A stretch of 64,000 nucleotides of DNA from Myxococcota bacterium (GCA_963674735.2 CAXXQS010000001.1:160001-224000), one strand, 5' to 3'. Positions 16,618 through 60,505 are shown, counted from the stretch's first letter. Notes: generated from the sequence alone by a model not told the origin. Made by a program: numbers and translations.

Positions 16618-17952
16618 ATGGAAGCAACGCTCGACACACGCACCCTGCACCTGATTTTCAACTCCCTTCCCATGGGTGTTTTCACCATCGATGGCATGGG
16701 GGTTATTACCGCTTTCAACCAGGCCGCCGAGCGGATCACCGGCTATCGCTGTGAAGAAGCGGTCGGTCGGCGCTGCGATGAAATCTTCCAAGCCAATATC
16801 TGCCAACAGGATTGTCCGCTCAAACAGTCGGTTAGCGGACGTCCGCCGGGGACGGCGCGCGAGGTGCGTATTCTCGCCAAGGATGGGCGGGAGCGCCTGA
16901 TCGAGGTCACCACCGCCGCGCTGGTGGACGACCGGGGCGATATCGTGGGCGGCGTGGAAATGTTTCGCGATCTGGCGCAACTGATCTCCTTGCGCAAACA
17001 GATTGAAAATACGTATGTATTTGAGGATATCGTCAGTAAAAACGCCGGGATGCGGCTTATTCTGGAACGCTTGACGCTTTTCGCGCAAAGCGCCAGTACG
17101 GTGCTGATCGAGGGGGCCAGCGGCACCGGCAAGGAACTGGTGGCGCGTGCCCTGCACAATCTTGGTCCGCGGGTTAAAAAGCCTTTTATTGCGGTGAATT
17201 GCGCGGCATTACCCGAAAACCTGCTTGAGTCGGAATTGTTCGGTTATGCAAAAGGGGCTTTCACCGATGCCAAGGCCAGCAAGCCCGGACGCTTTGCGCT
17301 GGCCGATGGCGGAAGCATCTTCCTGGATGAAATCGGAGACTTATCCCCGGCTATGCAGGTCAAGCTGCTGCGTGTGTTGCAGGAACGCGAGTTCGAGCCG
17401 TTGGGCGCCGTGGAGAGCGTGCATGTGGATGTGCGCGTGATCGCCGCGACGAACTGCAATTTGGCGGAAGCCGTGAAGAATCGTCAGTTTCGCGAAGATC
17501 TGTACTATCGCCTGAACGTCGTTCGCATTGCGTTGCCGCCGCTGGCCGAACGCCGCGACGATATCCCGTTGCTGGTTCAACATTTCATCGACCGCTTTAA
17601 TGCACGGTTTGGACGACGTATCAAGCGCGCCACCGAAGAGGCATTGGCGGTTCTGCTGAATGCGCCATTTCCGGGTAATATCCGCGAGTTGGAAAACGCC
17701 ATCGAGCATGCTTTCGTCGTTTGTGACGGCGACGAAATCGGGTTGCGCCACCTGCCTCCGAACCTCCAAGGCCGCCCCTCCGCCTTGAGCAAGCTGCTTG
17801 CCGAGAGAGAAGCATCCCCGCTGGCCGAAGCCGAGGCCGACGCCATACGACGAGCCGTTGCACAAGGCGCGACGCGCGCCGAAGTGGCCCAAAGGCTCGG
17901 GTTGTCCCGCGCCACACTTTGGCGAAAAATGAAAAAATACAAATTGTTTTAG
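16618..17952 (+). CDS. Sigma54-dependent activator PAS-AAA+-HTH, OrpR-like
   Basis: PAS with C-x8-C-x3-C; GASGTGKE, ESELFG, GAFTDA, FLDEIG, FREDLYYRL, PGNIREL, Fis-type HTH. Confidence 0.93.
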   Translation: MEATLDTRTLHLIFNSLPMGVFTIDGMGVITAFNQAAERITGYRCEEAVGRRCDEIFQANICQQDCPLKQSVSGRPPGTAREVRILAKDGRERLIEVTTAALVDDRGDIVGGVEMFRDLAQLISLRKQIENTYVFEDIVSKNAGMRLILERLTLFAQSASTVLIEGASGTGKELVARALHNLGPRVKKPFIAVNCAALPENLLESELFGYAKGAFTDAKASKPGRFALADGGSIFLDEIGDLSPAMQVKLLRVLQEREFEPLGAVESVHVDVRVIAATNCNLAEAVKNRQFREDLYYRLNVVRIALPPLAERRDDIPLLVQHFIDRFNARFGRRIKRATEEALAVLLNAPFPGNIRELENAIEHAFVVCDGDEIGLRHLPPNLQGRPSALSKLLAEREASPLAEAEADAIRRAVAQGATRAEVAQRLGLSRATLWRKMKKYKLF

Positions 17953-18045
17953 TCCGGTTGTGGGGGTGGGGGAACCGTGGTCGGTTTTGCTTCGGACGGG
18001 GGTTTCGAATGATGTTTTTTTGGAAAAGAAAGCCATCATTCCGGA

Positions 18046-18062
18046 TTGGCAAGCAATATGCA
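18046..18062 (+). promoter_or_regulatory. Sigma54 (-24/-12) promoter
   Basis: TTGGCAAGCAATATGCA: GG-N10-GC, 80 bp upstream of the operon. Confidence 0.75.
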
Positions 18063-18141
18063 ATCCCTAACCCGCTGCGGAGCGCAAGGTGCGCCACCGT
18101 ATGAACAATTTCTTGCTAGATAATGATTGAAGGAGCTCAGT

Positions 18142-18507
18142 ATGAAAATCGCCATTACCGCCGCGGGCGACGGATGGGAAGCCCCGGTGGACGAGCGTTT
18201 CGGACGCGCGGCCGCCTTTGCCGTGATCGATCTCGATGTCGATCCCCCCAGTTTGACCACGGTTTCCAACGAGCAAAACCGCCAGGCGGCCCAGGGTGCG
18301 GGCATTCAGGCGGCGGACAATGTCGCCAAAAGCGGAGTGGGCATTGTTGTGACCGGTCACGTGGGTCCCAAAGCCTTCCGTGCGTTGGCAGCCGGGAAAA
18401 TAGAAGTGTATACCGGCGTGCGCGGCACCGTGCGTCAGGCCTTTGAAGACTTTCAGGCCGGGAGCTTGAATAAAGCGGCCGGGTCCGATGTGGAGGGACA
18501 CTGGTGA
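18142..18507 (+). CDS. NifB/NifX (MTH1175-like, Orange protein) family protein
   Basis: 'MKIAI', 'D.RFGRA..F', 'GAGIQAA', 'TGHVGPKAF..L'. Confidence 0.9.
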   Translation: MKIAITAAGDGWEAPVDERFGRAAAFAVIDLDVDPPSLTTVSNEQNRQAAQGAGIQAADNVAKSGVGIVVTGHVGPKAFRALAAGKIEVYTGVRGTVRQAFEDFQAGSLNKAAGSDVEGHW

Positions 18508-19361
18508 GCCGCCTCACGATTGCGGTGGCGTCCGGCAAGGGCGGCACCGGAAAAACCACCGTTGCGGTCTCTTTGGCGCGGGCCCTGGCCGAGGCGGGCG
18601 AGCAGGTGTCGCTGCTCGACGCCGATGTGGAAGAACCCAACGACCACCTGTTTCTCGAAGCGGATAATCTCGATAATCGCGAAGTCAATCGTCCGGTGCC
18701 TGTGGCCGACGAAGACGTCTGCACCGGTTGCGGGGTCTGCCGCGAAGTCTGCGCGTTCAACGCTATCGTGTTGATGGACAGCAAACCGCTGGTTTTCCCC
18801 GAATTATGCCATGGCTGCGGGGCCTGTGTTCTCGAATGTCCCGAGCAATGCATAAGCGAAACCGACCACTTGACCGGTTGGCTGGAGGCGCAGCGAATCG
18901 ACCGACTCGACTTCATGCGCGGGCGCTTGAAAATCGGGGAAGCCATGGCGGTTCCGGTGATCCATGCCCTTCGTAAATACGAACGGGAAGAGGGAATCAC
19001 CGTGATCGATGCTCCGCCGGGAACGAGCTGCCCGGTCATTGCCGCCTCTCGTGGAACGGACTACTTGCTGCTCGTTACCGAACCGACGCCGTTCGGCTTG
19101 AATGATCTGCGGCTGGCGGTCGATCTGTCGCGCGCTCTCAAACTGCCCGCCGGAGTGGTTATCAATCGCTCCGATATGGGCGACAACAAGGTCAAATCCT
19201 TTTGCCAGCGCGAAGGATTGCCCATTCTGATGGAAATTCCCTTCAGTCGCACCATTGCCAGCGCCTACGCGCGCGGACGGACCTTGCTCGATGTGGACGA
19301 GGCCTGGCATGCGCGTATGGTGGAACTGGCCGAAACGGTGCGGAAGGAGGCGGCGCAATGA
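18504..19361 (+). CDS. MinD-superfamily P-loop ATPase with inserted 2x[4Fe-4S] ferredoxin
   Basis: SGKGGTGKT, DADVEEPN, two CxxCxxCxxxC motifs, DAPPGTSCP, TEPTPFG. Confidence 0.92.
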   Translation: MSRLTIAVASGKGGTGKTTVAVSLARALAEAGEQVSLLDADVEEPNDHLFLEADNLDNREVNRPVPVADEDVCTGCGVCREVCAFNAIVLMDSKPLVFPELCHGCGACVLECPEQCISETDHLTGWLEAQRIDRLDFMRGRLKIGEAMAVPVIHALRKYEREEGITVIDAPPGTSCPVIAASRGTDYLLLVTEPTPFGLNDLRLAVDLSRALKLPAGVVINRSDMGDNKVKSFCQREGLPILMEIPFSRTIASAYARGRTLLDVDEAWHARMVELAETVRKEAAQ

Positions 19362-20236
19362 AACAGATGGTCATTATCAGCGGTAAAGGGGGCACCGGGA
19401 AAACCACGGTGGCAGCCTCCTTCGCCTCCCTCGCCGTGGGCGCGGTTCTGGCGGATGCCGATGTGGATGCCGCCAACCTGCACCTGATTCTCGATCCGGC
19501 GATCAAGGTGAACGAAACCTTCAGTTCGGGGCAGGAAGCCATTATCGATGAAGAAATCTGTACCCGTTGCGGCGAATGCCGTAGTTTGTGCCGTTTCGAC
19601 GCTATTTCCGAAGATTTCAGGATTGATTCGCAGGCTTGTGAAGGCTGCGGACTTTGCGCTCGGCGCTGTCCGGTCGAAGCCATTCACATGAAGCCCTGCA
19701 TTTCGGGGCGTTGGTTTATCTCTGATACCCGCTTCGGACCTTTCGTGCACGCCCGGCTCGGTATCGCCGCCGACAACTCGGGCAAGTTGGTGGCCTTGGT
19801 ACGTGAAAAGGCGCGCGAACTGGGCGAGCAACGCCAGTCCGATTTTCTGATCATCGATGGCGCACCCGGTGTGGGTTGTCCGGTGATCGCTTCCGTGACC
19901 GGTTGCGACCTGGCCCTGGCTGTCACCGAACCCACCCGCAGCGGTTTGCACGACCTGAAACGGGTGATCGAACTGACCCAGCATTTCCGCGTGCCCACTC
20001 TGGTGGCGATCAACAAGGCCGATCTGGACGAAGAGATGAGCGACCAAATCGAAGAATTCTGCCGCGAGAAGCATCTCATGCTGGCGGGCCGCATTCCCTT
20101 CGATCCCAGTGTGGTCAAGGCCATGGTGGCGGGTGAAACCCTGGTGGACTACTCCGCCGGGGCGGCGGCCCAGGCTCTGCGGCGTTTGTGGGAAGTGGTG
20201 AGCGGTGAATTGGCCGGATTGGAGGCGGCTTCGTGA
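19358..20236 (+). CDS. Second MinD-like P-loop ATPase with ferredoxin insert
   Basis: SGKGGTGKT, DADVDA, two CxxCxxCxxxC motifs, SGKLV, DGAPGVGCP; ATGA overlap. Confidence 0.92.
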   Translation: MKQMVIISGKGGTGKTTVAASFASLAVGAVLADADVDAANLHLILDPAIKVNETFSSGQEAIIDEEICTRCGECRSLCRFDAISEDFRIDSQACEGCGLCARRCPVEAIHMKPCISGRWFISDTRFGPFVHARLGIAADNSGKLVALVREKARELGEQRQSDFLIIDGAPGVGCPVIASVTGCDLALAVTEPTRSGLHDLKRVIELTQHFRVPTLVAINKADLDEEMSDQIEEFCREKHLMLAGRIPFDPSVVKAMVAGETLVDYSAGAAAQALRRLWEVVSGELAGLEAAS

Positions 20237-20532
20237 GTGTCGGGACGCGCGACAAACTCGGGCTTTCCCTGGATGGCTTCTGCATCGAAACGACAGCCAA
20301 GCAACGGCTGCGCGTCCTCACCGAGCGTTTGCTAAATGGAGAGGAACGTGCCGAAACGATGGCGGAGGCCGAGTTTTTGCGTCAATTTCTGGAAACGGGA
20401 GAATTTTCCGCGCTACGTGCGGATAATCCCGGACTTGACGGCAGCCACCGCTCTGAGGTAACCATTACGCGGGAGGCTTCCGGAGAATTTGCGGTCAGGG
20501 TCGAACGCGACTATGGACCGGCAGGAGGCTAA
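20233..20532 (+). CDS. Hypothetical protein in the ORP operon
   Basis: GTGA overlap with the upstream gene; GGAGG RBS. Confidence 0.65.
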   Translation: MSVGTRDKLGLSLDGFCIETTAKQRLRVLTERLLNGEERAETMAEAEFLRQFLETGEFSALRADNPGLDGSHRSEVTITREASGEFAVRVERDYGPAGG

Positions 20533-20632
20533 CGGCTTAAAACCCCGGATGAGTGAAAATGATTGGACAAACGGGGTTAAACGGAACCCTGGAACAATAG
20601 ACGGTTAACTTGTAGAGAGAGGATCAGAAATC

Positions 20633-21949
20633 ATGAGCGATCAGCATAACCATAATTGTGGAGGTGGAAGCGGTTGCGGCGGCGGAAGCGGCTGTGGCGG
20701 TGGAAACGGCAGTGGTCAGGGAGATGATGCCCAGCGACCCGATGCCCAGGAAGTGGTAAAAGAACTCATGCTCAAAGAGCGCATGGGCAAAGTGCGCAAC
20801 AAAGTCCTGGTGTTGTCGGGTAAAGGCGGTGTCGGGAAAAGCACCGTGGCCGTCAACCTGGCGCGTTCGCTGGTGCGCAAGGGATTCAAAGTCGGCCTGC
20901 TCGACATCGACGTGCACGGTCCGAGCGTGCCGGTGATGCTGGGGTTGGAGGGCCGCCGCCTGGGCGAAAGCCCCAACGGTATCGCCCCGGTGGAAACGGC
21001 CGGACTCAAGGTCGTGTCGGTGGGCTTCATGCTGCCCGACGATGACAGCCCCGTCATCTGGCGCGGCCCCCTCAAAATGGGACTCATCGAGCAGTTTCTG
21101 CGCGATGTCGAATGGGGCGATCTGGACTTCCTGATCGTCGATGCTCCTCCGGGAACCGGCGACGAGCCGCTGTCGATCGCGCAGTTCCTCCCGGAAGCCT
21201 ATGCGTTGATCGTCACGACTCCGCAACGCGTTTCCACCATGGACGTGCGCAAGTCCATCACCTTCTGCGGCAAGCTCAATCTGGAGGTTTTCGGCCTGGT
21301 GCAGAACATGAACGGCATGGTGTGTCCGCATTGCGGCGAGCACATTCCGGTGTTCCCCATGGGCGAAGCCGAGAAAATGGCGAAGGACATGGGGGTATCG
21401 ATTTTGGCCAGCCTGCCGATCGATCCGGCCGTCTCGGCGGCCGCCGACCACGGTCAACCGTTTGCCGAAAGCGAAACATCGCCGACGTCGGTGGCCATGG
21501 CTCCCCTGGTGGAATCGCTGGTGTCGTTTGCCGAAATGAAGCGGAAAGCGGCCGACGCAAAGGAACTGACGCAGATCGCGGCTGCCGCACCGAAGAAAGC
21601 GGAGGGCAAACTGGTGGCGGCCGTTCCTCTGGCGGACGGCAAGCTGACGGCGCACTTCGGTCACTGCGAAACCTTCGCCTTCGTCACCCTCGACGAAAGC
21701 AGCAAGACGGTTGTCGCCCGGCGCGACCTGGCGCCGCCGCCGCACGAGCCGGGTGTGATTCCGCGTTGGGTGGCCGAACACGGCGCCAACCTAATTTTAG
21801 CCGGTGGCATGGGTAGCAAGGCCCGTGATATTTTCGAGGCCGCCGGGGTGAACGTGGTAACGGGCTGTCCCGAGGACGAACCCGAAGCGCTGATCCTTGC
21901 TTATGTCAACGGAACGCTGGCCACGGGCGAGAATGTGTGCGATCATTAG
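20633..21949 (+). CDS. Mrp/NBP35 (ApbC) Fe-S carrier ATPase fused to a NifB/NifX domain (MrpORP-like)
   Basis: SGKGGVGKS, DIDVHGPS, VIWRGP, DAPPGTGD, CPHC; C-terminal 'HFGHC..F', 'PPPHEPG', 'GGMG', 'NVCDH'. Confidence 0.93.
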   Translation: MSDQHNHNCGGGSGCGGGSGCGGGNGSGQGDDAQRPDAQEVVKELMLKERMGKVRNKVLVLSGKGGVGKSTVAVNLARSLVRKGFKVGLLDIDVHGPSVPVMLGLEGRRLGESPNGIAPVETAGLKVVSVGFMLPDDDSPVIWRGPLKMGLIEQFLRDVEWGDLDFLIVDAPPGTGDEPLSIAQFLPEAYALIVTTPQRVSTMDVRKSITFCGKLNLEVFGLVQNMNGMVCPHCGEHIPVFPMGEAEKMAKDMGVSILASLPIDPAVSAAADHGQPFAESETSPTSVAMAPLVESLVSFAEMKRKAADAKELTQIAAAAPKKAEGKLVAAVPLADGKLTAHFGHCETFAFVTLDESSKTVVARRDLAPPPHEPGVIPRWVAEHGANLILAGGMGSKARDIFEAAGVNVVTGCPEDEPEALILAYVNGTLATGENVCDH

Positions 21950-21958
21950 CCGATATGT

Positions 21959-21992
21959 CGGCGGACCGGACTGCCGACGGTCCGCCGGTTTT
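21959..21992 (+). terminator. Rho-independent terminator
   Basis: CGGCGGACCG/CGGTCCGCCG stem followed by GTTTT. Confidence 0.6.
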
Positions 21993-22056
21993 AGCATGAC
22001 CGACTCCCAACGTTTCGTGTCATGATGGCTCCGGGTTGCGAAAAATCAAGGTGCGT

Positions 22057-23124
22057 ATGTTTATGAAATGGCACATCGGGGTATGGATCGCGGTCGTTGC
22101 TATCGCACTGCTGGCCGCGGCGTGTGTCGTGAAAGGCCGTTGCCAGAACCAGTCGGATTGCAGCGGGGCGGAAGTGTGCGTGGACGGTCAGTGCCGCCTC
22201 GAATGCACGACCGACGACGACTGTTCCCTCGATCAACAGTGCCTCGATCAACGTTGCATACCCGCCGAAGGCTGTCAGGGCTGCCCGTATCCCGATGCGC
22301 CGCAGGGCCAGGCCGAGTGCGTTCACGGCGAGTGCCGCTTGACGGGTTGCGACGACGGCTGGCTTGATGCGGACGATGACCCGCGTACGGGCTGTGAATG
22401 CGAAATCACGCTCGATGGCGTGGAAGCCTGCGACGGTAAAGATAATGATTGCAACGGCCTGGTGGATGAAGGCTGTTCCTGCTCCCCGACAAACGGCGGG
22501 GTGGAAATCTGTGACGGGGTGGACAACGACTGCGACAACAAAATCGATGAAGATCTGCTCTGCTGCCCGAACGACATGGCGGCGGTTGAGGATCAGTTCT
22601 GTATCGACATCTACGAAGCGTCGCGTCCCGATGCCGGGGCGGCCGACGCGGGAACGGATTCGAGTCGGGCGGTCTCGAAAGAAGGTGTTGCGCCCTGGAC
22701 GATGATCAGCCAGGCCGACGCACAGGATGCCTGCGTGGCTGTCGGAAAACGCTTGTGCAATGCCGCCGAATGGTTTGCCGCCTGCCGGGGACCGTCTGAA
22801 ACGGATTATTGCTATGGCGATGAATATGAGGCGGCCACCTGCAACGGCATCGACGCCTTCTGTGAAAATCCGCAATATGGTTGCGGGCTGGAGGAATATC
22901 CCTTCCGCATGTCTGTCACGGGGGCGTTTTCGGGTTGTACCAACGCTTACGGCGTGTTCGATATCAATGGCAATGTGTGGGAGTGGGACAGCGACCCGGA
23001 AGGTCACGGGCGTGGTGGAGCCTACAATTGTTCCGACTCGCGGGCGTTGCATCTATGTGATTTTCTCAAACGCGACGGCGGAAACCGGGCGACTTCGAAT
23101 GTCGGTTTTCGCTGCTGTCGATAA
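22057..23124 (+). CDS. Cys-rich lipoprotein with putative metal-binding (MopE-like) repeats and FGE-sulfatase/C-type lectin domain
   Basis: Lipobox LAAAC; two 'E.CDG.DNDC...DE' repeats; 'KRLC...EW..AC', 'GVFDINGNVWEW', 'RGG', 'VGFRCC'. Confidence 0.85.
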   Translation: MFMKWHIGVWIAVVAIALLAAACVVKGRCQNQSDCSGAEVCVDGQCRLECTTDDDCSLDQQCLDQRCIPAEGCQGCPYPDAPQGQAECVHGECRLTGCDDGWLDADDDPRTGCECEITLDGVEACDGKDNDCNGLVDEGCSCSPTNGGVEICDGVDNDCDNKIDEDLLCCPNDMAAVEDQFCIDIYEASRPDAGAADAGTDSSRAVSKEGVAPWTMISQADAQDACVAVGKRLCNAAEWFAACRGPSETDYCYGDEYEAATCNGIDAFCENPQYGCGLEEYPFRMSVTGAFSGCTNAYGVFDINGNVWEWDSDPEGHGRGGAYNCSDSRALHLCDFLKRDGGNRATSNVGFRCCR

Positions 23125-23136
23125 ACGGGATAGCCG

Positions 23137-23649
23137 ATGCGGGATGGGAAACAATCGGTCGCTCGATGGCGCGGAAGATGGCGGGTAAGCCTGCTTCGCC
23201 TTGCCGTTTTGCTTTTTCTGCCGAGCGCGATCGGGCTGAGCGTCAATGCCGCCCGTCCCGACTCGTTGGCTTGGGTGGCGGTCGTTCCCTATGAAATATA
23301 CGCCGATTGCCCCGAAACCTATGCCAAGGCCGAACCGATAACCGTTGAAGCGGCGCGTGCCGCACGGAAACGTCTGGTGGTGGATGCGCGGCCCAAGAGC
23401 GAATTCGACGCAGGCCATCTGCCTGATGCGTGGTCGTTGCCTTACGATTCGCTCTTTCCCGTCGCTGCCGAGGACTTGGCACGCATTCGCGATGGGGCGA
23501 CCGGACGGTTGGTGGTGGTGATCGGCAAAGGTATGAATGCCCGCCTGTTGGCGGATGAGTTGGCCGAGGGCGGACTCAAAGGCATTCGCTACCTGGCCGA
23601 TGATCACGATTGGCGCAGTCTGATGAACGGTGGAGGGGGGCAGCCATGA
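23137..23649 (+). CDS. Membrane-anchored rhodanese-like domain protein
   Basis: 'VVDARPKSEFDAGHLPDAWSLP'; no active-site Cys. Confidence 0.8.
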   Translation: MRDGKQSVARWRGRWRVSLLRLAVLLFLPSAIGLSVNAARPDSLAWVAVVPYEIYADCPETYAKAEPITVEAARAARKRLVVDARPKSEFDAGHLPDAWSLPYDSLFPVAAEDLARIRDGATGRLVVVIGKGMNARLLADELAEGGLKGIRYLADDHDWRSLMNGGGGQP

Positions 23650-24128
23650 CGAGCAAGACTTCGGTTCGTTCCTGGCTGGCGGCTTTGAGCGTTCCGGCGC
23701 GCCTCTATCTGGGGGGCGTGTTTGTGGGCGCAAGCCTGTACAAAATCGCGCTGCCCTATGAATTCGCGTTGTCCATCGCCACGTATCAAATTCTGCCGCT
23801 GGAGGTGATCAATCCCTTCGCCCTCACGCTGCCCTGGATCGAATTGGTCGTGGGAGCGGCGTTGATTCTCGGCTTCTGGACCCGTGAAAGCGCGGTTTTG
23901 ATCAGCGGCATGATGATGATGTTTATCGTGGCGCTTATTCTCGCACTTTCGAAAGATTTGCAGATGTCCTGCGGCTGCTTTGCCTCGCAGGACACCATCG
24001 ATGAAATCGGGCTACATACGGTGTTTCGCGATTTAGGCTGGCTTTTTTTGGGGCTATACGTCTGGATTGCGGACGATGGGCGTTTCGGTTTGGACCGCTG
24101 GCTGACACGAAGGAGACAGCATGTTTAG
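23646..24128 (+). CDS. MauE/DoxX family redox-associated membrane protein
   Basis: 'ARLYLGGVF..AS..KI..P..F', 'LPWIEL..G', 'SCGCF', 'RD'. Confidence 0.88.
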   Translation: MTSKTSVRSWLAALSVPARLYLGGVFVGASLYKIALPYEFALSIATYQILPLEVINPFALTLPWIELVVGAALILGFWTRESAVLISGMMMMFIVALILALSKDLQMSCGCFASQDTIDEIGLHTVFRDLGWLFLGLYVWIADDGRFGLDRWLTRRRQHV

Positions 24129-24984
24129 ACGACTGGCGATACTCGGTTGCATGATTTGGTTTGTCGCGGCGTTCTCGGTGGCGCAAGCGGCGCAGCCGGA
24201 TGTCCCCTGGGAACGTCTCACCGGAAGCGATCGGCTCAACGACACTCAAAAGGCGGTGGTGAAACGCGTACTCGAACAAGCCGATAGTTACGCGGGATGC
24301 TCCGACAAACTGATCGTCTGTTTGAGCGATAAACCGGTGGAAAAAGCGGTTATGCGTCAGGCCAATTTCGTGCTGCGGCGCGCGCTGTTGGGTCGTGGGG
24401 CAGCGGATGTTTTGAAAGACCTGGAAGCACGCGCCTTGTCGGCCTATCCGCCCCTACGCTACAAACCCGATCTGGAGGGGCTGACGCCGTCGGGCGATCC
24501 CAATTCCTTGATCAAGGTCGTGGTGTACGCGGATTTTCAGTGCCCCTACTGCAATATCGCGGGCCCGGCGCTACGGCGCATCAGCTTGGAGAACCCCGGT
24601 TTGATCGCGTATTACTATAAAAATTTCCCCGTCAAATCGCATCCGCGCGGTCTTGAAGCCGCCATGGCGCTGTTGGCCGCCGACCGGCAGGGTAAGTTCT
24701 GGGAAGCCCACGATAAGCTGTTCAAGGAAGACGAATTCCTCGGGAAAGACCTCGAACGTTATGCGGCTGAGTTGGGTCTCGATATGGCGCGCTTCAACAA
24801 AGATCGCCTGGACGACACCCTCATGACGCGCATTCGCAAGGAAAAGGAAGAAGGCCTGCTGTACGGCATGATCGGGACACCCGGGATTTTCATCAATGGC
24901 AAATTTTACAAGGGTAGTAAAAGCTACGAGGAATTGCTGGACTTCCTTATGGAAGAGAAGGATATCATTCGTGGTGAGCCGTAA
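24121..24984 (+). CDS. Exported DsbA/thioredoxin-fold protein
   Basis: Signal peptide; 'DFQCPYC', 'QGKFWE.HD.LF', cis-Pro 'GTPG.FING'. Confidence 0.9.
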   Translation: MFRRLAILGCMIWFVAAFSVAQAAQPDVPWERLTGSDRLNDTQKAVVKRVLEQADSYAGCSDKLIVCLSDKPVEKAVMRQANFVLRRALLGRGAADVLKDLEARALSAYPPLRYKPDLEGLTPSGDPNSLIKVVVYADFQCPYCNIAGPALRRISLENPGLIAYYYKNFPVKSHPRGLEAAMALLAADRQGKFWEAHDKLFKEDEFLGKDLERYAAELGLDMARFNKDRLDDTLMTRIRKEKEEGLLYGMIGTPGIFINGKFYKGSKSYEELLDFLMEEKDIIRGEP

Positions 24985-26527
24985 CTCCCTTATCGCTATC
25001 GGGATTGTATGGCTGGGCTTGCTTTGTCCGGGTGTCGTTTGTGCGGCGGGTTGCCTGGTGGGTGTGACCGACGGCCTGGAACTGGAGCGTGGCGGACAAA
25101 ACGAGGCGGCGCGAGCGGCTTATACCCGAGCCGTCGAAAACGATTCGACCTGTGCGGCGGCTTTTGTGGCTTTGGGACGTTTGGCGGTGGCGGCGAACGA
25201 CTGGCGCGCGGCCGAGCGCGCGTTGGCGAAAGCGCGGCGGCTTCTTCCTGAGGATGGGGCGCTGGGTTTGCGGCTGGCGGAAGCCTATCTGGCCCAGGAT
25301 AAATATACGTGGGCGGTGCGCACGTTGTCGGGGCTGAAGGGCCGCTTGTCCGATGACTTGGAAGCCCACCGTCGTTATCTTCTAGGTGTCGCGGCGATCA
25401 AGATGGGGGATGCCACGGCCGCCGACGAGCACTTCGCGGCCATTCCCGAAACGCGGCGCGAGACCTATCCGCAATTGGCTTACTATGAAGGCTTGTCGCT
25501 GGTCGAGCGTCAGCAGCCTGTTGTGGCGCGCGACCGGTTGGAATCCTTTTTAAGCGAAGAAGGGCGGGACCGCGCCTTCGATCCGGCGGCGCGTTTGTTT
25601 CTCGAACGTACCTACGCCGTTCAGGAACGCGACCCGCTGATTGCCGCCTCGTTGACGGCCTCGCCGATGTACGACAGCAATGTGTTGCAGCAACCCGACG
25701 ACCAGGCCGAGGCGGGCGAAAGTCCGGCATCTTTCGGGCTGTTGTTGCACGGGGCTCTGAGCGTCAATGCGTTGCGCTTGAGCCGTCACCGTCTCGGGGT
25801 CGATCTGTCGCTCACGCGCAGCTTCTACTTCGAGCAGCCTGCCGCCGATTATGCCTATACCGGGGCCAAGTTAATGCCTCGTTACCGTTTGCGTTTTCGC
25901 GGATTCGGTACGGACCAGGAACTGCACGTCGGCTATATCGGGATGGTGAGCTTTCTGGATGGCGGGGGCTTGAGCCGTGACGAAGAAAACAGCATTTATG
26001 TCTATTCCGAGTCTCACCGCGGGTTTGCCCGTTGGGTGGTGGCGGAACGCGGTTTCGGTGAAACGGCTTTGCACGTCAGTTCGGGACGGACTTTGTTTCA
26101 TCAACAGGGGCGCGACAATTGGGGGGTAAACGGTGCGTTGGGGCAGACATTTCTGCTCTCGGGTGATGAAATCAAATTATTTGTCGAAGCGTTGGGCCGC
26201 TATGAAAAAGCGCGTCGCAGCGATTACAGCCGTTGGGGTGCGGGAGCTTTTTTGGGCGTGTCGGCCATGTTGCCTTGGGATGTGAATGTGTCCGCTGCCG
26301 TTCGCTACGAGCATCTGCGCCACTTCGATTCCGCCGAAAGCCTGACCTGGACCGATTCGCGCCGCGATAATCTGTCGAGTGTCACTTTGGCGGCGATGCG
26401 GAGTTTCCTCGATCACTTGGATGTCGGGGTCAGCTATACCGCCACTCGCAATTTATCGAGCCTGGATATCTTCGACTACACACGCCATACGGTGGCGCTG
26501 ACGTTACGCGGGAGGGGCACATGGTGA
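24971..26527 (+). CDS. TPR-repeat plus outer-membrane beta-barrel protein (Slam/DUF560-like architecture)
   Basis: Signal peptide, TPR helices, 'YDSNV' barrel start, alternating beta strands, terminal aromatic residue (..GTW). Confidence 0.7.
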   Translation: MVSRNSLIAIGIVWLGLLCPGVVCAAGCLVGVTDGLELERGGQNEAARAAYTRAVENDSTCAAAFVALGRLAVAANDWRAAERALAKARRLLPEDGALGLRLAEAYLAQDKYTWAVRTLSGLKGRLSDDLEAHRRYLLGVAAIKMGDATAADEHFAAIPETRRETYPQLAYYEGLSLVERQQPVVARDRLESFLSEEGRDRAFDPAARLFLERTYAVQERDPLIAASLTASPMYDSNVLQQPDDQAEAGESPASFGLLLHGALSVNALRLSRHRLGVDLSLTRSFYFEQPAADYAYTGAKLMPRYRLRFRGFGTDQELHVGYIGMVSFLDGGGLSRDEENSIYVYSESHRGFARWVVAERGFGETALHVSSGRTLFHQQGRDNWGVNGALGQTFLLSGDEIKLFVEALGRYEKARRSDYSRWGAGAFLGVSAMLPWDVNVSAAVRYEHLRHFDSAESLTWTDSRRDNLSSVTLAAMRSFLDHLDVGVSYTATRNLSSLDIFDYTRHTVALTLRGRGTW

Positions 26528-27237
26528 AAGCCTGGATCGTGATTGTCGCCTTGTGCGTGTTGGCCGGTGGGCGAGGGTATGCCGCCGATGATACGGTGTG
26601 CCAAACGGACGACGCCGGTGGGCGGGTAAGTTGCGGAGAAGGACAGGCAGCGCTGATTCGTCTGAACGACGACGCGGCGGCAGCCGTCGGACCGCAGTCC
26701 GAAGTCCTCCGGGGCGAAACGCTCACCTTGATCAAAGGTCGCGTTCATCTCGAATCCGTCGCTCCGCTGGATCTGGCCGTTGGTCTGGATGCGGTACCTC
26801 TTCAGTTGACCGGTTGCGCCGTTGCAGAAATCACGTCCGATCGTGCTCGTTTGTGTCTTAAAGTCGATTCGCGGGCGACGGCCGGGGAAACTGTTTTCGA
26901 CGCGGACGCCCCGCTGGCTTTGCGTTGGCAAAACGGATCGTGGGAGATCGATAGCCAAACGGATTTGTGTGGCTGGTCTCCCGCTGCGGCTTTATTGGTT
27001 GGACCGCTTGCGCCTTTGGCCTTCGACAAACCGGCGGAGAATGTCGCGACGGGCGAGAAAACCGGCGGATTGAGCGGCGGGTCGGATACGGAAGAACGTG
27101 GGGGCGGTGGCGAAGCGATTTGTCTGGATTCCGCCGGGGGCTCCGGCGGAGCGGTCGACGCGATTGACAATCCTCCCGATGTGGCGGGCGAGCACGGTCA
27201 GGCGCGTGTCACCGTGCGGGTCAAACTGAGAGATTGA
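26521..27237 (+). CDS. Exported FecR-like domain protein
   Basis: Signal peptide; 'ALIRLNDD....VGPQSEV....LTLIKGRV' resembles the FecR beta domain. Confidence 0.5.
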   Translation: MVKAWIVIVALCVLAGGRGYAADDTVCQTDDAGGRVSCGEGQAALIRLNDDAAAAVGPQSEVLRGETLTLIKGRVHLESVAPLDLAVGLDAVPLQLTGCAVAEITSDRARLCLKVDSRATAGETVFDADAPLALRWQNGSWEIDSQTDLCGWSPAAALLVGPLAPLAFDKPAENVATGEKTGGLSGGSDTEERGGGGEAICLDSAGGSGGAVDAIDNPPDVAGEHGQARVTVRVKLRD

Positions 27238-27238
27238 C

Positions 27239-27949
27239 ATGCAGTATTTCGATTGGATCGTTCGGTTGGCGTTATCGAGCCTTTTGTGCCTGCTTCTGGC
27301 GGGTTGCTTTGTCGCGTCCGGACCCGATCAAAGCGCCGTAACCCTCACACTCGATCTGCCCCGTGACCAGACTCCCACCGCCCGTCTTTCCAGTGGCCAA
27401 ATCGCCGGAGGGGAGTGGGTAGATGGCAGCCGAGCCAAGTTCGAGTTGCGTGTCAGTGCCGACGATATGGACTCCATCGTGCATCAGGAAAGCCTATCCA
27501 GCGAAAACCCCGCCGACAGCCTGGTTGTGACCCTGGAAGTCGACTCCGGTGAAGCTCGTCTCTTCGATGCCGTTTTATTTGTGCAAGACGAACCGCCTCT
27601 TCGGACCTATCGGCCCGTTGAGCCGCTTTCCGTGAACCTGGATGCGGATGAAGTTCGCGATCTGACCCTAACTTTACAGCGCCAGCCGACCGGCGTGTTG
27701 ACGGTTTCAGCGACCAACGCCTCCGGTGACCGCCTGACTTTGCAAGATGTCGAGACCGGTTTCGATCTGCCGGCTTGGGACTTTATGGAAGAAGATGGCG
27801 GTACTTGGATGGTCGAGATGGATGATCTCCCACTTGAACGCGACCTGCTGCCGGTGGTTCTTTCGGCTGATGGGCAACAGCAAGAACTGCCGGATTACAT
27901 CTTCCGGCTCACGGCCGAAAATCCCTCGTTTTCCTTCGAAATTTTGTAA
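27239..27949 (+). CDS. Hypothetical beta-rich lipoprotein
   Basis: Lipobox LLAGC; acidic, beta-strand-rich. Confidence 0.7.
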   Translation: MQYFDWIVRLALSSLLCLLLAGCFVASGPDQSAVTLTLDLPRDQTPTARLSSGQIAGGEWVDGSRAKFELRVSADDMDSIVHQESLSSENPADSLVVTLEVDSGEARLFDAVLFVQDEPPLRTYRPVEPLSVNLDADEVRDLTLTLQRQPTGVLTVSATNASGDRLTLQDVETGFDLPAWDFMEEDGGTWMVEMDDLPLERDLLPVVLSADGQQQELPDYIFRLTAENPSFSFEIL

Positions 27950-28100
27950 TAAATGAGGTCTGCTTGGGTCGATCTCAAGCACGCGCGTCCAGTTTTAAAA
28001 AACATCGAAAATGCCTAAACAACGAAAAAGGTGCAATCATGCCTTGCAGGCCATGACGCTCAGCGTTATACTCGTTCAGCCTTGAGGGGAAGGAGTTGTC

Positions 28101-29402
28101 GTGGTTGTACATGGCCAAGTGAATGTTCTGCTGGTGATGATCGGGAACGCCTGGGATGGGGTTGCGCGTCTGAAAGCTCGCACGATCTTGCGAGATGTCG
28201 AGCACGTGTTGGGCGATCGTCTCGGCCGGGTTCGTCTGGTGGCCCGCCTCAATGGTTTATCCTCCGGTTTATATGTAAATGGACAAGAATTGGAAGTCAG
28301 TTCTCCGCTGCAATTGGCCGATCCACGTTCGTGGCTGCGCGATAGCGATTTGATGTTGGTGGCCAAGAACGATACCTGGGACGAGCGGGACTCGGCTCTG
28401 GAAGAAATGGGTTGGACGGCGTGGCTTGAATTGGCTCACCTGATGGGTAAACGCATCGTCGCTTACGGTCATGAGGTGGCTGAACTGGGTAGTTCGCGGC
28501 GTCGCCTGTTACGCCGTCTGATTAGTCAAGCCGGACTTGTTACCGTAAATTGTCCCAATGATATACAGTACCTGAAGTCATACGGCGTCACGAATGAATT
28601 GTTTTGCACCGCCGATAGCAGTTACTTGGTTGCACCACCCGATCCGGCATTTCGCGACCAGGTTTTAGCGCGTTTCCGCCTCGATCCCCAGGCGCGTCCG
28701 TTGATCGCCATTTTGCCCAAGTCGGTTTTCGGTGGCCGTGACCGCCGTGAAAAAAACGGAAAGCTGGGTTTGCGACCCCTTTGGAGCGCGGTTGGAGCTA
28801 CGCCCGAGCGACTGTTGCACCGGCTTCGCTACGTGCGTCAGATGGCGGCCTATGCCGATGGTTTGGTCGAGCGCTACGACGCCAACGTGGTGCTCATGAC
28901 GTTGCGTTTCACCGATGACGTGGCGGCCAGGAAAATCCATGAGTCCATGCGCGCGCGCCATCGCGCACGGTTGGTGACCATCAGCGATAACGGGCTTGAC
29001 GACATCCTGGCGCTTGTGTCGGCGGCAGGTTTGGTTGTGGCGGGGCGGGTGCATGCCGCCGTTCTGGCTTGTGTGAACGGGGTTCCCATGATCGGTGTCA
29101 GCAATGATCCGCGTTTGGAAAATTGCTTTCGCGAGGCCCGCATGAGTCCGTATTTCCTCGACTATCTTTCCCCAGACGGGCGCACGCCCAATACCTACAA
29201 GCTGGATGAATGGCTGACGGAACGCACGGAAACGGCTTTGGCCGACAGAGACGAATTGCGAGAGCGGGTGCGTCGCGCTCACGCCTCATACCGGCGGCGC
29301 GCCTTGGAGAATCGTCACTATCTCGGTGATTTCATTGAACGTTATCTAGGCGAACCCACCTCGGCTGACGAAACGGACGATCCTCGTCCGGCACATGCCT
29401 GA
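28101..29402 (+). CDS. Polysaccharide pyruvyl transferase (WcaK/CsaB-like) homologue, divergent
   Basis: 'ADSSYL', 'VVAGRVHAAVLA...GVP.IG'; N-terminal motifs eroded. Confidence 0.65.
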   Translation: MVVHGQVNVLLVMIGNAWDGVARLKARTILRDVEHVLGDRLGRVRLVARLNGLSSGLYVNGQELEVSSPLQLADPRSWLRDSDLMLVAKNDTWDERDSALEEMGWTAWLELAHLMGKRIVAYGHEVAELGSSRRRLLRRLISQAGLVTVNCPNDIQYLKSYGVTNELFCTADSSYLVAPPDPAFRDQVLARFRLDPQARPLIAILPKSVFGGRDRREKNGKLGLRPLWSAVGATPERLLHRLRYVRQMAAYADGLVERYDANVVLMTLRFTDDVAARKIHESMRARHRARLVTISDNGLDDILALVSAAGLVVAGRVHAAVLACVNGVPMIGVSNDPRLENCFREARMSPYFLDYLSPDGRTPNTYKLDEWLTERTETALADRDELRERVRRAHASYRRRALENRHYLGDFIERYLGEPTSADETDDPRPAHA

Positions 29403-29419
29403 CTAAATCTGCTTTCGCT

Positions 29420-30124
29420 TCAGGGCTTTTCGGCCAGCATATAGCAGGCGGGAATGTCGCGTTCGTCGAATTTTCTCTCGAAAATCGTGCGGATGTTGTG
29501 CTCGACGTAGGAACTGTGGGCGAGATCGCGTGTTTCGGCGAGAAGCTGCAGCGGACTGTTGCGCAGATCGTCGAGATATTCTCCGAAGCGTTCCTGGTGG
29601 TCGGTTTTCAGTTCGAAGCGTCCGCCGGATACCAGCAGATCGGTCAAGGCTTCCAGAAAGGGACCATCCACCATGCGCCGGTAGCGTTGCCGTTCTTTGG
29701 CCGCCCACGGATCTGGGAAGAAAACCATGACCTTACTCAATTCGCCCGCTGCGAAGATGAAAGGTAGGAAATTCGCGTCGAAGCGCAGCATGAAGGCGTT
29801 GGTCGCGCCGGCCTGAGTCAGCCGTTTGGCCACTTTGTAAACCCGGCGAAACTTGATCTCGATTCCGAGAACGCATACCTCCGGATTGGCCAGTGCGTAT
29901 TCCGTGATGAAGCGTCCCTTACCCGGTCCGATTTCCACGTGCAGCGGACGACCTTGACACCAATCATCCCAATGCCCCCGGCGTTCCATGGCTTCGCAGG
30001 GATGGACGAGTCGTTCGGGAAACTGCTCTTTGACTCGGAGCAGATACGGATTACAGCGGGTGTAGCCCGGTTCGTCGTAAAAGGGACGGCGGGGTTGAGT
30101 GGGTTTCTGTCGTTCTTTGGCCAT
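29420..30124 (-). CDS. trmB: tRNA (guanine-N7)-methyltransferase
   Basis: 'VEIGPGKG', 'LGIE', 'FPDPW', 'KTD', 'T.FERKF'. Confidence 0.92.
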   Translation of the reverse strand: MAKERQKPTQPRRPFYDEPGYTRCNPYLLRVKEQFPERLVHPCEAMERRGHWDDWCQGRPLHVEIGPGKGRFITEYALANPEVCVLGIEIKFRRVYKVAKRLTQAGATNAFMLRFDANFLPFIFAAGELSKVMVFFPDPWAAKERQRYRRMVDGPFLEALTDLLVSGGRFELKTDHQERFGEYLDDLRNSPLQLLAETRDLAHSSYVEHNIRTIFERKFDERDIPACYMLAEKP

Positions 30125-37577: not shown

Positions 37578-40500
37578 TTATTCGCGGCAGCGACATTCTC
37601 CTGTATCGCAAATGAAGTCCGCGCCGAATGTTTCGATACATTCGATATTGGTGACACAGCTTTGCGTACAGTAGCGTTCGAACAGCGGCCACCACTCCCC
37701 GGTGCAGTAGGATTGCGACCCATAAATGCTCCAGCAGTTTTCATCGGTGAAACAACTGCCATAGTTGCACTCGGGTGGGGGTAATTCTTCGCACAGACAA
37801 TATCCCTCAAAACAAGACGACATGTCGGGACAGTCCTGGTCGTTGCCGCAGGATTGCGTGCACCATTGCATGCCCAGCGGTTCGACGAACAGGCATTCAT
37901 TCCAGCCTTGTTCGGTGCATTCGGCGTCGGTGCTACATTCCGACTGCACGCAGCGATCGTTAGACAAATAATCGCAGACGCAGTTGCCGTAGTGGCAGCG
38001 GTAGCCGGAGGGGCATTGGCTGTCGGTATCGCAAGCTTTCGAACATTCCTTGACCTCATCGAAACCGTAAACGTCGGCACAGAAGGGCAGGTCGTTCGAA
38101 CATTGGGTGTCGGTGCTGCAGATTACCGGACAGTCGGGCGGATCGTCGGGACAGGCGCAGTAGCCGTCGGACCCGCAGGTCCACGGCTTGGGGCAGTCGC
38201 TGCCGCCGCCGCAATCCCGCGAGCAGATCCCCATATTTTCCAAACACAGCAAACCGTAATTAGTACAGGAACTGTCGTCGGAACAACCGACCTCCGCACA
38301 GGCGTTGGGGTCGAAAGCGGTCGGATCGCAGGCGTTGCCGAGACCGTCGTTGTCGGAATCGAGTTGATTCTGGTTGGCTGCATATATGCAGTTGTCGCAG
38401 GCATCGCCTAAAAGATCGCGGTCGGAATTTTCCTGTTGCGGGTTGTAGTGCGACGGGCAGTTGTCATCCACATCCGGTACGTCGTCGCCGTCACGGTCGA
38501 GCGGTTCATCCGTATCGCCGTCGATGTCCCCATCCACGACTTCAAGGCAGTTCCAGAGCGTGTTGCAATCTTCCAGACTCAGGCAAGCCAGAACGGCGCT
38601 GTCCAAGGCGGCATCTTCACAAAAATCGATGCACTCTTCGATCGTATCGCCGAAGGGCAATCCGGCTCCCAGGTAACCGCAAAGCTCGATGCGGCTACAG
38701 GCGCTGTGGCAATCGTAAACCGGCAGGTCGCCGTCGGTATCTCCATCCACTTCCTGATAAACCAAATAATCCAGGACGACTTCATCGTCGTAGCCGGTGG
38801 GGTCGACCGATTCGGCATGTAAAACGCGGGCTCTCAGATTGTATTGTCCTGCGGCTTCCGGGGTCCATACGATATTGCTGGCTCCAGGGTAGTCCATCAG
38901 GTTTTGCCAAGGCCCTCCGTCGAGACGATAATCGACTCGGTAATGAATGGGGCTGGCTGGATCGGTTGAAATGGACAACGCCACGGGATCGTCGATCTGC
39001 GCTTGATCGGGGGGGGCGGCGCTGAAACTGACGATGTCGGCGGTGGGCCAGTCGGCGGAAATGCGGTATTCGATGGTCATTTCATCGTCGTAGCCGCGTG
39101 GGTCTTCCGAGTCCGGGTGGAAGACTCGTGCTCGCAATCGGTAGTTCCCCGCCTGGGTGGGCGCCCAGCTATAGAGATAGTAGCCCGGATAATCCATAAG
39201 GGTTACCCAGTCGCCGTCTTCGAACTGCATATCGATGCGATAGTACATGTAGGGGGGTGGAGATTCGGAGCGGATGCGCAGACTGACGGCTTCGCCGAAG
39301 TCGGCATTGCCGTCCGGGGTTCCATAGAAATCGGTGATGCGAGCGGCAGGCCACGATCCGACGACTTGGTAGGGAATGATCATTTCGTCGTCGTATCCGC
39401 GCGGATCTTCGGAATCGGGATGTACCACGCGTGCCCGCAACTCATAGCTGCCAGCTTCACCCGGAGTCCAGTCGTGCTGGAAATAGCCTGGGTAGGCCAT
39501 GATCGTAGTCCAGGAACCGCCCTCCAGGCGTGCCTCGATCTGGTAGTACATGTAAGGGGGCGGGGATTCGGAACGGATGCGCAGGCTGACCATTTCACCG
39601 AGATCGGCTGTTTCGTCCGGTGTTCCGTAGAAGTCGTTGATAACGGCTTTGGGCCAGTCGGCACTAACGGTGTAGCTTAGGAAGGCTTCGTCGTCATAGC
39701 CGCGCGGATCTTCCGAATCGGGGTGTACCACACGTGCCCGCAACTGGTAGTTGCCCGGAGATTCCGGGCTCCAGTCCTTCTGGAAATATCCCGGATAATC
39801 CATCACGGTCATCCATTCTCCGCCCTCAATCCGTGCATCGATGCGATAGTACATGTAGGGCGGCGGGGATTCGGAGCGGATGCGCAGGCTGACCGTTTCG
39901 CCTACCGCAGCCTCGTCGGCCGGGTCTGCGTAAAAATCCGTGATTTTGGCCTTGGGCCAATCGGTGCTGATTTCGTAGGTGATGATACGTTCGTCGTCGT
40001 AGCCGCGCGGGTCCAGCGAATCGGGATGGAACACCCGCGCCCGCAATTCATAGCTTCCGGTTTCCGAGGGGTTCCATTCGGCCGTGTAATAACCGGGGAA
40101 GTCCATCAGCGTGACCCAGCCTTCACCGGCCCGACGAACATCGATACGATAGTACATGTAAGGGGGCGGAGATTCGGAACGGATACGCAGGTTGATCGTT
40201 TCGCCCAGGAAGGCCTCGTCGGCCGGATCTCCGTAGAAGTCGTTGATCACGGCTCGGGGCCAAGCGCTGCAGATTCCACTTGCACAGATGCCTTCCGGAA
40301 TGTCGGGATCGTTGGTTTCGCAGGGGGTGCCGTCCGGCAGGACTGTCGAGGAGCAGCCGGTGGGTTCGGTGCAGAAATCGTCGGTACAAGAATTGTCGTC
40401 GTCGCAATCCAGTTCCAAACTGACGCAATGACCGAAGTAACACAGATCTCCCTCCGTGCAAACCAATCCATCGCTACAGGAGGAGCCGTTGGGCAACGGA

Positions 40501-42062: not shown

Positions 42063-42570
42063 GGTGTGTACTCCTTCAAACGTCCGCAAACATCAATCCA
42101 TTATCGATCATGACACTCCATATTAAGTAAAAGGAGCCTTCATGTAAAGAATTATAGTGTAATTATGCAGTGCTGGCTTCAGATTGTCGAAGTTTGTCAA
42201 GCCGGATCGAGAACGATCGTTTGGTTTAGTCGACGGGGTTGCGCCAAGGTTTGCGATTTTCGATAATCGGAAACGAATACGGCTTTCAATTGCGAATAAT
42301 AACAAATAATAACAGTTAGTTAAAGCAGTCGTCAAAAACCGGACGAAATTGGGTTCCGGCGGAGAGAATCTCAACTTTAAGGTCTCATATCGTCACAATC
42401 TTGACGAACGAATTGTTTTGCATATGTATGAGTTGTACTGATATAGGGACGAAATTTTCATTATTCTGAAAAATTAATGTTGAATTTTGCAAAATTTCAG
42501 ATATAATCGATGTACATTCAATAGAGGATACTTAAGTCAGAATTTTGGCAGACCAGGGGAGAATGTGACG

Positions 42571-60106: not shown

Positions 60107-60505
60107 ATGGTTAAGGACGTGATCGTAACGAGCCGCTCCCGTGATGAATTCATTGATGTGACGCATGAGTTGGCCGACGCAGTCCGGGAAGCGGGGATTG
60201 AAGAAGGGGTTGTTACGGCCTTTGTGCGTCATACAACCGCTGCGTTGACCATCAACGAAAACGCTGATCCCGCCGTGCAGCGCGACCTGTTGACCAGCTT
60301 GCGGCGTTTGATCCCCGAGCAGGGAGATTATCGTCACGCGGAAGGAAATTCGGATGCTCATCTCAAAAGCTCCTGTTTCGGTGCGTCGGAGCAGGTGATC
60401 GTCAGCGGGGGACGGTTACTGCTGGGTACTTGGCAGGGAGTGTATTTTTGTGAGTTTGATGGGCCACGCACTCGCCACCTATTGATTCACGTTCAAGGGA
60501 GTTGA
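60107..60505 (+). CDS. yjbQ: YjbQ/UPF0047 family protein
   Basis: 'HTTAAL.INENADP.V', 'H.EGNSDAH', 'LGTWQG.YF.EFDGPR.R'. Confidence 0.92.
   Translation: MVKDVIVTSRSRDEFIDVTHELADAVREAGIEEGVVTAFVRHTTAALTINENADPAVQRDLLTSLRRLIPEQGDYRHAEGNSDAHLKSSCFGASEQVIVSGGRLLLGTWQGVYFCEFDGPRTRHLLIHVQGS

Follow-up and report, generated by a model that had tools for sequence, protein, structure and literature searches.

MauE is described as a generalist substitute for DsbB in the available text of a recent preprint (Gonzalez et al., bioRxiv, March 2026, 10.64898/2026.03.05.709764): two homologues replace DsbB in an Escherichia coli dsbB mutant, both Cys of the CXC motif are required, and MauA is present in only 10.2% of the species that have MauE. 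The same text cites an earlier proposal that MauE is a reductase. Here we describe a MauE gene that lies within a compact seven-gene operon (22057–27949, + strand) in a 64,000-nucleotide stretch of DNA, hereafter the window, from a Myxococcota bacterium (GCA_963674735.2 CAXXQS010000001.1:160001-224000). Its neighbors encode a Cys-rich lipoprotein, a rhodanese-like membrane protein, a DsbA-family oxidoreductase, and a predicted outer-membrane barrel, and from these sequences we tentatively read the operon, at just under even probability, as an oxidative folding relay joined to a divergent translocon of the Slam/type 11 secretion system (T11SS) kind and to a lipoprotein client.

The MauE of the operon resembles the proteins of the preprint in its match to PF07291, its CGC-F motif, the Lys and Glu of its first two helices, its thioredoxin-fold partner, and its independence of mauA; it differs in having a fixed pseudo-rhodanese neighbor, a DsbA with an extra Cys-bearing N-terminal domain, and a barrel. 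The terms rhodanese, barrel, lipoprotein, operon, and Myxococc- do not occur in the available main text of that preprint, to which the search was confined. The operon is also akin, as far as the available text goes, to MauD/MauE of methylamine dehydrogenase and DsbL/DsbI of AssT (PMC6067686), each an accessory DsbA/DsbB-like pair for a particular disulfide-dependent client. The client here would be a repeat-rich lipoprotein. To our knowledge, neither of those systems includes an outer-membrane barrel.

On the export side, the nearest described systems are the Slam proteins of the T11SS (DUF560, PF04575; PMC5449769, PMC8406197, PMC9090332, PMC12282271). The available portions of these papers show a likeness in the N-terminal TPR repeats followed by a barrel of ~290 residues, 14-stranded in Slam (PMC5449769), in the adjoining lipoprotein genes, which ~52% of Slam homologs have (PMC5449769), and in a remote profile match to orthologs of the barrel described here. 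In contrast to Slam, the matches are mostly below the cut-off, the lipoprotein has no 8-stranded cargo barrel, the link to a Dsb relay is fixed, a subset of relatives (type B, below) has a Cys-ended periplasmic tail, and the hosts are Myxococcota and Acidobacteriota. In the available T11SS text, marine cluster 3 systems mostly lack cargo with an 8-stranded barrel, so other cargo types are to be expected. The nearest trace of a MauE-like gene with a T11SS barrel is a supplementary table in which 28 of the 145 loci of that cluster have a gene of DoxX/DoxD type close by, a point that the text of the paper does not discuss. The type 9 proteins GldK/PorK and SprF/PorG (PMC12635249 and PMC12421860, available parts) are alike in their non-catalytic FGE-fold lipoprotein and, with respect to type B relatives, in a conserved Cys in an outer-membrane protein's periplasmic C-terminal tail; the barrel belongs to another family, no ring or motor genes are seen here, and the window's barrel is tailless, so the resemblance is one of analogy only. 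The operon bears on how the disulfide-rich lipoproteins of Myxococcota become oxidized and displayed on the surface; CglB of M. xanthus is such a protein, and T11SS has been excluded for it and is stated to be absent from that species (PMC9946355).

Organization of the operon

Seven open reading frames (ORFs) on the + strand make up the operon, with intergenic distances, in order, of +12, -4, -8, -14, -7, and +1 bp, which confirms the tight packing reported in a first-pass annotation of the same DNA. Gene 1 (22057–23124) encodes the lipoprotein with 37 Cys (PF03781 and PF11617), the probable client and candidate cargo. Gene 2 (23137–23649) encodes a pseudo-rhodanese with a single transmembrane (TM) segment (PF00581), a putative partner of MauE, and gene 3 (23646–24128) is MauE itself, a predicted DsbB-like membrane disulfide generator (PF07291). 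The product of gene 4 (24121–24984) is a DsbA-family oxidoreductase with a Cys-bearing N-terminal helical domain (PF01323, PF13462), and that of gene 5 (24971–26527) combines TPR repeats with a predicted 14-stranded outer-membrane barrel of the type, here called A, that has no C-terminal tail. The last two genes occur with type A only and match no Pfam family: gene 6 (26521–27237) encodes an exported beta-rich protein and gene 7 (27239–27949) a second lipoprotein, which is an alternative cargo candidate. Pfam matches and motifs agree with the earlier calls of an FGE domain, a membrane rhodanese-like protein, MauE with CGC, and DsbA with CPYC and an N-terminal Cys pair, and Pfam likewise detects TPR repeats in gene 5.

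Conservation of the gene set

A MauE alignment was scanned against 185,579 species genomes and 199 relatives were confirmed, the best 80 of which gave 78 loci with 84 MauE copies; 50 loci are labeled Myxococcota, 13 Acidobacteriota, 5 Pseudomonadota, 4 unplaced Deltaproteobacteria, 3 Eisenbacteria, and 1 Gemmatimonadota, with 2 unlabeled. The nearest relatives are from Myxococcota genome bins, with 55–66% identity. The gene set proved to be conserved in this survey, in support of the operon described at first pass: the rhodanese-like gene is immediately upstream of MauE in 83 of the 84 copies, a DsbA with the same N-terminal domain follows MauE in 66, and a barrel of the gene 5 family adjoins the cassette in 54, upstream in 47 and downstream in 7. 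In 38 copies, a gene for an FGE-fold lipoprotein is found within 3.5 kb of MauE. The median gap is -4 bp for lipoprotein and barrel (18 pairs), for rhodanese and MauE (72), and for MauE and DsbA (53) alike.

The survey shows that the barrel and the FGE-fold lipoprotein are tightly linked. Fully flanked copies, as we call the 54 that have 3.6 kb or more on each side, divide into 29 with both genes, 9 with just the barrel, 1 with just the lipoprotein, and 15 without either; the barrel is thus present in 29 of 30 copies that have the lipoprotein, and the lipoprotein in 29 of 38 that have the barrel. An internal control points the same way: every one of the 54 barrel ORFs and 47 FGE-family ORFs falls in the 542 kb lying within 3.5 kb of MauE, and the remaining 633 kb contain none. 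A Fisher test of the co-occurrence (p 2e-6) was set aside because the loci are related. In L053 (8858–9417) and L068 (8479–9449), the lipoprotein and barrel genes are both deletion remnants and MauE and DsbA persist; the rhodanese match of L068 is split. A comparison of the barrel family with plasmid records gave no match.

The set occurs in two gene orders. The window's order, type A, runs lipoprotein, rhodanese, MauE, DsbA, barrel, gene 6, gene 7, and is complete in L002, L003, L004, and L006, with the rhodanese gene missing from L001 and gene 7 doubtful in L055. In type B, the order is lipoprotein, barrel, rhodanese, MauE, DsbA, and the gap between lipoprotein and barrel is at most 30 bp in 16 of 18 cases. 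The MauE tree divides into two deep clades (26 and 59 rows, support 95), one for each gene order, with the set kept in both, and the barrels of the two types have diverged to roughly 20–25% identity. Since types A and B fall in separate deep clades, the linkage has outlasted both rearrangement and barrel divergence. Gene 6 is present in only 6 and gene 7 in only 5 of the 78 loci, so the conserved unit is one of five genes, not the seven-gene system first proposed. The proposal that the system is dedicated is likewise not supported, given the generality of MauE and the 15 fully flanked copies with neither barrel nor lipoprotein.

Several loci show variations on the cassette. Two rhodanese–MauE copies, one from each deep clade, stand 4–8 kb apart in L007, L013, L016, L020, L026, and L052. 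Directly after rhodanese–MauE copies without DsbA and barrel are genes for proteins with 152 Cys (L045, 9962–14125) and 71 Cys (L013, 10604–12871), which is consistent with these being further clients. Ten Acidobacteriota loci without an adjacent FGE gene (L029, L032, L036, L041, L044, L048, L049, L069, L072, and L074) have a secreted-protein gene that overlaps the DsbA stop codon; its product, which has a single invariant Cys in an apparent thioredoxin-type domain, matches BACON weakly, and ends in a basic tail, is a possible alternative client.

The disulfide relay

Gene 3 matches the MauE profile (PF07291) with 77 bits against a cut-off of 27, and its K33, E66, and C109-G110-C111-F112 are invariant in 80 of 80 aligned MauE copies. 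K33 and E66 presumably correspond to the conserved Lys and Glu that the preprint places in helices 1 and 2. Of the MauE–DsbA relay proposed in the first-pass annotation, the oxidative direction stands, in view of the preprint and the invariant motif, and the novelty does not, as the available preprint text already describes such a relay; the generality of MauE in that text also speaks against its having been repurposed from the mau system. The reported absence of mauA and mauB holds: a Pfam scan of 44 of the window's ORFs (those of at least 120 residues number 145, many being shadows) matched no methylamine dehydrogenase family, and the window shows no small Cys-rich ORF resembling MauA.

Gene 2 contains one TM segment at about residues 17–36 and a rhodanese domain whose catalytic column was set by alignment to the Y-C-G-G-G of 6mxv. 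The catalytic Cys position holds Gly in 81 of 82 sequences (Gly130 in gene 2) and Ala in the other, so gene 2 is not a sulfurtransferase. A Cys about 20 residues past the TM helix, corresponding to the juxtamembrane Cys58 of gene 2, recurs in 81 of the 82, and we infer that the pseudo-rhodanese may be an accessory subunit of MauE. None of 7,996 scored longer candidates is a rhodanese–MauE fusion, a negative that counts as weak evidence; the sole match is a barrel–rhodanese record. In this single metagenomic record (P0273), which may be an assembly artifact, the barrel tail helix is in frame with a rhodanese domain that lacks the TM helix.

Gene 4 scores above the cut-off for both PF01323 and PF13462 (DSBA and Thioredoxin_4), with a CPYC active site and a T253-P254 loop, and its relatives of solved structure in the PDB include both oxidases and ScsC isomerases. 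The N-terminal domain carries a Cys pair (C60/C67) that is invariant in 67 of 67 sequences; it is weakly CcmH-like (6 of 55 members, best E 4e-4), and a search for a relative of solved structure found none. In L054, a VKOR–DsbA fusion (912–2174) lies upstream on the same strand, which fits an oxidizing direction of the relay and would be a second oxidative pathway alongside that of MauE. DsbA domains occupy the corresponding place in L062 (6760–7260) and L078 (6390–6884), L054 being the one of the three that was profile-scanned.

The barrel and the lipoprotein

An AlphaFold2 model of gene 5, built from a 73-sequence alignment, shows TPR helices and 14 strands with a predicted local distance difference test score (pLDDT) of 94.6, in keeping with the TPR-barrel assignment made at first pass, and a modeled type B barrel also has 14 strands. 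The predicted architecture, TPR repeats with a 14-stranded barrel, is Slam-like. We scanned the SlipAM/DUF560 profile (PF04575) against 30 barrel domains from which the TPR part had been removed, namely the window's and 29 from a list of 51, with domains under 700 bp or containing N left out. Seven of the 30 match at E<=0.14, and two of these, both type A orthologs, exceed the cut-off of 22 bits (L002, 24.0; L006, 25.8), in register across the last third of the 288-position profile. Gene 5 is therefore best described with care, as probably a remote relative of DUF560/Slam and not a demonstrated member of the family.

The 37 Cys of gene 1 comprise the lipobox Cys23 and 36 others, distributed over short Cys-rich repeats, MopE-type repeats (PF11617), and a C-terminal FGE-fold domain (PF03781, residues 207–353, 63 bits). 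In the FGE-fold domain, 11 Cys are invariant in 52 of 52 domains. The catalytic Cys of human FGE are 336 and 341; C325 of gene 1 aligns with the first of these, and an equivalent of Cys341 is absent. With the second catalytic Cys missing, the domain is not a canonical FGE and probably serves in binding or docking.

The count of one lipid Cys plus an even 36, as given in the first-pass annotation, is correct, but evenness is atypical of the family. Of 34 full-length relatives, 26 have an odd number of Cys beyond the lipid one (a count that omits the truncated L031 fragment, L061, and proteins without a matched N-terminus), so an unpaired Cys is the family norm. The even count of the window's protein comes from an extra Cys, C252, which 4 of the 8 even relatives share and all the odd ones lack.

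A Cys-ended tail in type B barrels

Outer-membrane barrels normally end in their last strand. All 47 type B barrels (47/47) continue for ~50 residues past it, through a conserved helix, to a Cys within the last five residues; L034 (4565–4721) provides an example. The tail is modeled on the TPR side, which would be periplasmic, with its first half confident and its helix not. In every tailed cassette (44 of 44) the accompanying DsbA has an extra Cys three residues ahead of its active site, and in the 8 tailless cassettes it never does, a difference that reflects a single evolutionary split (the paired alignments omit L044). Complex prediction for the type B tail together with DsbA, the FGE domain, and the rhodanese domain gave a score of 0.05 against a mark of 0.32 and is evidence neither way. 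Homology of the gene 6 C-terminus to the tail, suggested by a shared short Cys motif, was rejected (hhalign P 0.32, with 41 of 100 column shuffles scoring as high).

Proposed function and alternatives

In the relay-and-translocon reading, MauE would very probably use its CGC loop to supply DsbA with disulfides and would deliver electrons to quinone, as shown for two homologs. The catalytically dead rhodanese would, with slightly better than even probability, act as an accessory subunit that supplies MauE with a further Cys. DsbA would with good probability oxidize the FGE-fold lipoprotein and other exported Cys-rich proteins, those of the window with 88, 52, and 22 Cys being candidates. The barrel probably works with the FGE-fold lipoprotein, and its likeliest role, which we propose tentatively and at a little below even probability, would be to carry the lipoprotein to the surface part-folded, with short-range disulfides already formed. 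The gene set suggests that folding and surface display may be linked.

It is also conceivable, if unlikely, that a type 11-like export system physically couples the oxidation of eukaryote-like, disulfide-knotted surface proteins to their passage across the outer membrane. MauE and the pseudo-rhodanese, which provides the third Cys, would charge DsbA at the mouth of the Slam-like barrel, and the tail Cys of type B would form a mixed disulfide with the extra Cys of DsbA or with the unpaired Cys of the cargo.

Several observations weigh against the export reading. SlipAM fails to match the window's barrel even at E<=1, and 23 of the 30 domains have no match to it. In the available text of PMC9090332, Slam1 moved TbpB only in the unfolded state, a poor fit with a cargo whose 18 disulfides are formed in the periplasm, and the characterized lipoprotein cargo of Slam share a C-terminal 8-stranded barrel (PMC5449769 and PMC8406197, available text), where gene 1 ends in its FGE-fold domain and has no such barrel. 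Of the Slam-type export proposed at first pass, the architecture, the remote kinship, and the barrel–lipoprotein linkage thus stand, and passage of a fully oxidized 18-disulfide cargo is not supported. Furthermore, an FGE lipoprotein is missing from 9 of the 38 fully flanked cassettes that have the barrel, those of Acidobacteriota included; co-loss of barrel and lipoprotein was seen in three independent pairs on well-supported branches, which is not significant; among 150 listed library matches, 96 barrel domains are complete at the C-terminal end and only 5 of these have the type B tail; and the survey, being anchored on MauE, takes in barrels near MauE only.

The alternative that survives best, at a low probability, is that rhodanese, MauE, and DsbA form a general Dsb pathway with which barrel and lipoprotein are co-transcribed only for their need of disulfides, the barrel moving gene 7 or some other substrate. 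The generality of MauE, the 15 of 54 fully flanked copies without barrel and lipoprotein, the six loci with two rhodanese–MauE copies within the fetched stretch, the paired Cys in the TPR parts of the barrels, and the three further Cys-rich exported proteins of the window speak for such a housekeeping role. It does not readily account for an FGE lipoprotein that is found without a barrel in just 1 of 30 copies, for a type B pair that usually abuts, or for the decay of both genes together in L053 and L068.

We also consider it unlikely that there is no export at all and that the relay makes a covalent bond within an outer-membrane complex, in which a periplasmic FGE-fold lipoprotein is disulfide-linked to the barrel via the tail Cys in type B and perhaps via gene 6 in type A, in the manner of GldK/PorK and SprF/PorG. 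The terminal Cys of type B barrels on the TPR side, the invariant Cys of the FGE domain, and the frequent odd Cys counts suit this arrangement, and the available text of PMC12635249 provides a precedent, as that of PMC12421860 does for the FGE fold as a docking hub. Against it are the window's own tailless barrel and even-Cys lipoprotein, the tailed Acidobacteriota barrels without an FGE neighbor, the undetectable homology of tail and gene 6, and the absence of recurrent ring or motor genes nearby, as judged by clusters and N-terminal sequence only.

An improbable alternative, allowed for at first pass, is that the barrel is a solute porin or polysaccharide exporter. The closest solved folds to gene 5 are the 14-stranded porins CymA (Z 21.3, root-mean-square deviation (rmsd) 3.4, 277 residues aligned) and OmpG (Z 21.1, rmsd 3.0, 244 aligned), Foldseek ranks BcsC first (query TM-score (TMq) 0.30), the inward face is Arg-rich, and a pyruvyl transferase gene follows the operon. 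This ranking is silent on Slam, which is absent from the PDB sequence and fold match lists, and so neither excludes nor could favor it. Weak EpsL/BBP2_2 matches are far under the cut-off and mostly cover the last 55–75 residues of 378–385-position profiles. The BcsC and EpsL/BBP2 exporter barrels presumably have 16 or more strands. PgaA-type exporters are 16-stranded in the available text of PMC8406197, against 14 strands here, no polysaccharide gene family recurs among the neighbors, and the pyruvyl transferase gene has no match beside the relatives among the matches listed. A sulfur-transfer or reductive module, in which the rhodanese and a DoxX-like protein handle thiosulfate or persulfide or MauE and DsbA reduce periplasmic targets, is very improbable, since the matches to PF00581, PF07681, and, weakly, TQO DoxD (E 0.02), the ScsC isomerases among DsbA's PDB relatives, the earlier reductase proposal for MauE in the available preprint text, and the MrpORP Fe-S cluster near 11 of 78 loci are set against a rhodanese without its catalytic Cys in all 82 sequences and MauE homologs that, in that text, restore disulfides to a dsbB mutant with both Cys needed.

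On the relay-and-translocon reading, the operon would bring together, on one transcript, the newly recognized MauE pathway with its native partner DsbA, a barrel remotely related to Slam, and a candidate cargo of non-canonical kind. It bears on T11SS-type barrels beyond the Pfam family and cargo without an 8-stranded barrel, on how a translocon for unfolded chains would handle disulfide-rich cargo, and on whether a two-Cys MauE uses an accessory Cys-bearing subunit. In a search of full text, whose coverage leaves out most subscription journals and bioRxiv supplements, MauE is nowhere described together with a Slam-like barrel, and the supplements of three T11SS papers, searched save for file 4 of PMC12282271, contain no MauE row. 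The parts are of known kinds; what appears to be undescribed is the fixed way in which they are coupled, along with the pseudo-rhodanese and the Cys-ended tail.

Genes 6 and 7 and the surrounding window

Gene 6 encodes a Gly/acidic linker, an invariant Cys in a C-L-[DE] motif, and a terminal strand. The earlier description of it as FecR-like has no Pfam support, as PF04773 matches neither the window's copy nor any of six orthologs (6/6), leaving only a sub-threshold lead in Atlas (0.88, 135 of 256 features, in a cluster that is 58% FecR). Gene 7 has no Cys beyond its lipobox Cys in the window copy, and neither it nor the orthologs scanned have a Pfam match, including to the 8-stranded cargo barrel. 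Genes 6 and 7 may be clade-specific accessories or extra cargo.

Upstream, an 11-bp stem-loop followed by four T (21958–21992, + strand) is the probable intrinsic terminator of an MrpORP cluster. Its hairpin (21958–21988; -22.8 kcal/mol, z -2.65, equaled by 3 of 200 shuffles) stands between the MrpORP gene and the operon. The terminator reported at first pass is plausible on the strength of the hairpin but is missing from a simple consensus terminator scan, the loop being of 9 nucleotides and the T run short. The scan upstream of gene 1 found no sigma-70-like site, and no Rfam family was matched across 20000–30000 of the window. The cluster (16618–21949) comprises, in addition to MrpORP, a sigma-54 regulator, a NifX-type protein, and a pair of 4Fe-4S P-loop ATPases. 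This pair recurs near MauE in 11 of the 78 loci, within the flanks that were fetched, on one side or the other and in members of both clades. Downstream, 151 bp past the operon on the same strand, is the polysaccharide pyruvyl transferase family gene (28101–29402).

Three further exported Cys-rich proteins are encoded in the window: a lipoprotein-like protein with 88 Cys and Y_Y_Y domains (37578–42089, - strand), one with 52 Cys and no Pfam match (54820–56196, + strand), and one with 22 Cys and a weak MYXO-CTERM match under the cut-off (60502–61146, + strand). Cys-rich myxobacterial repeats, as weak matches, also occur elsewhere in the window. The suggestion made at first pass that the relay serves other Cys-rich proteins of the window is plausible.

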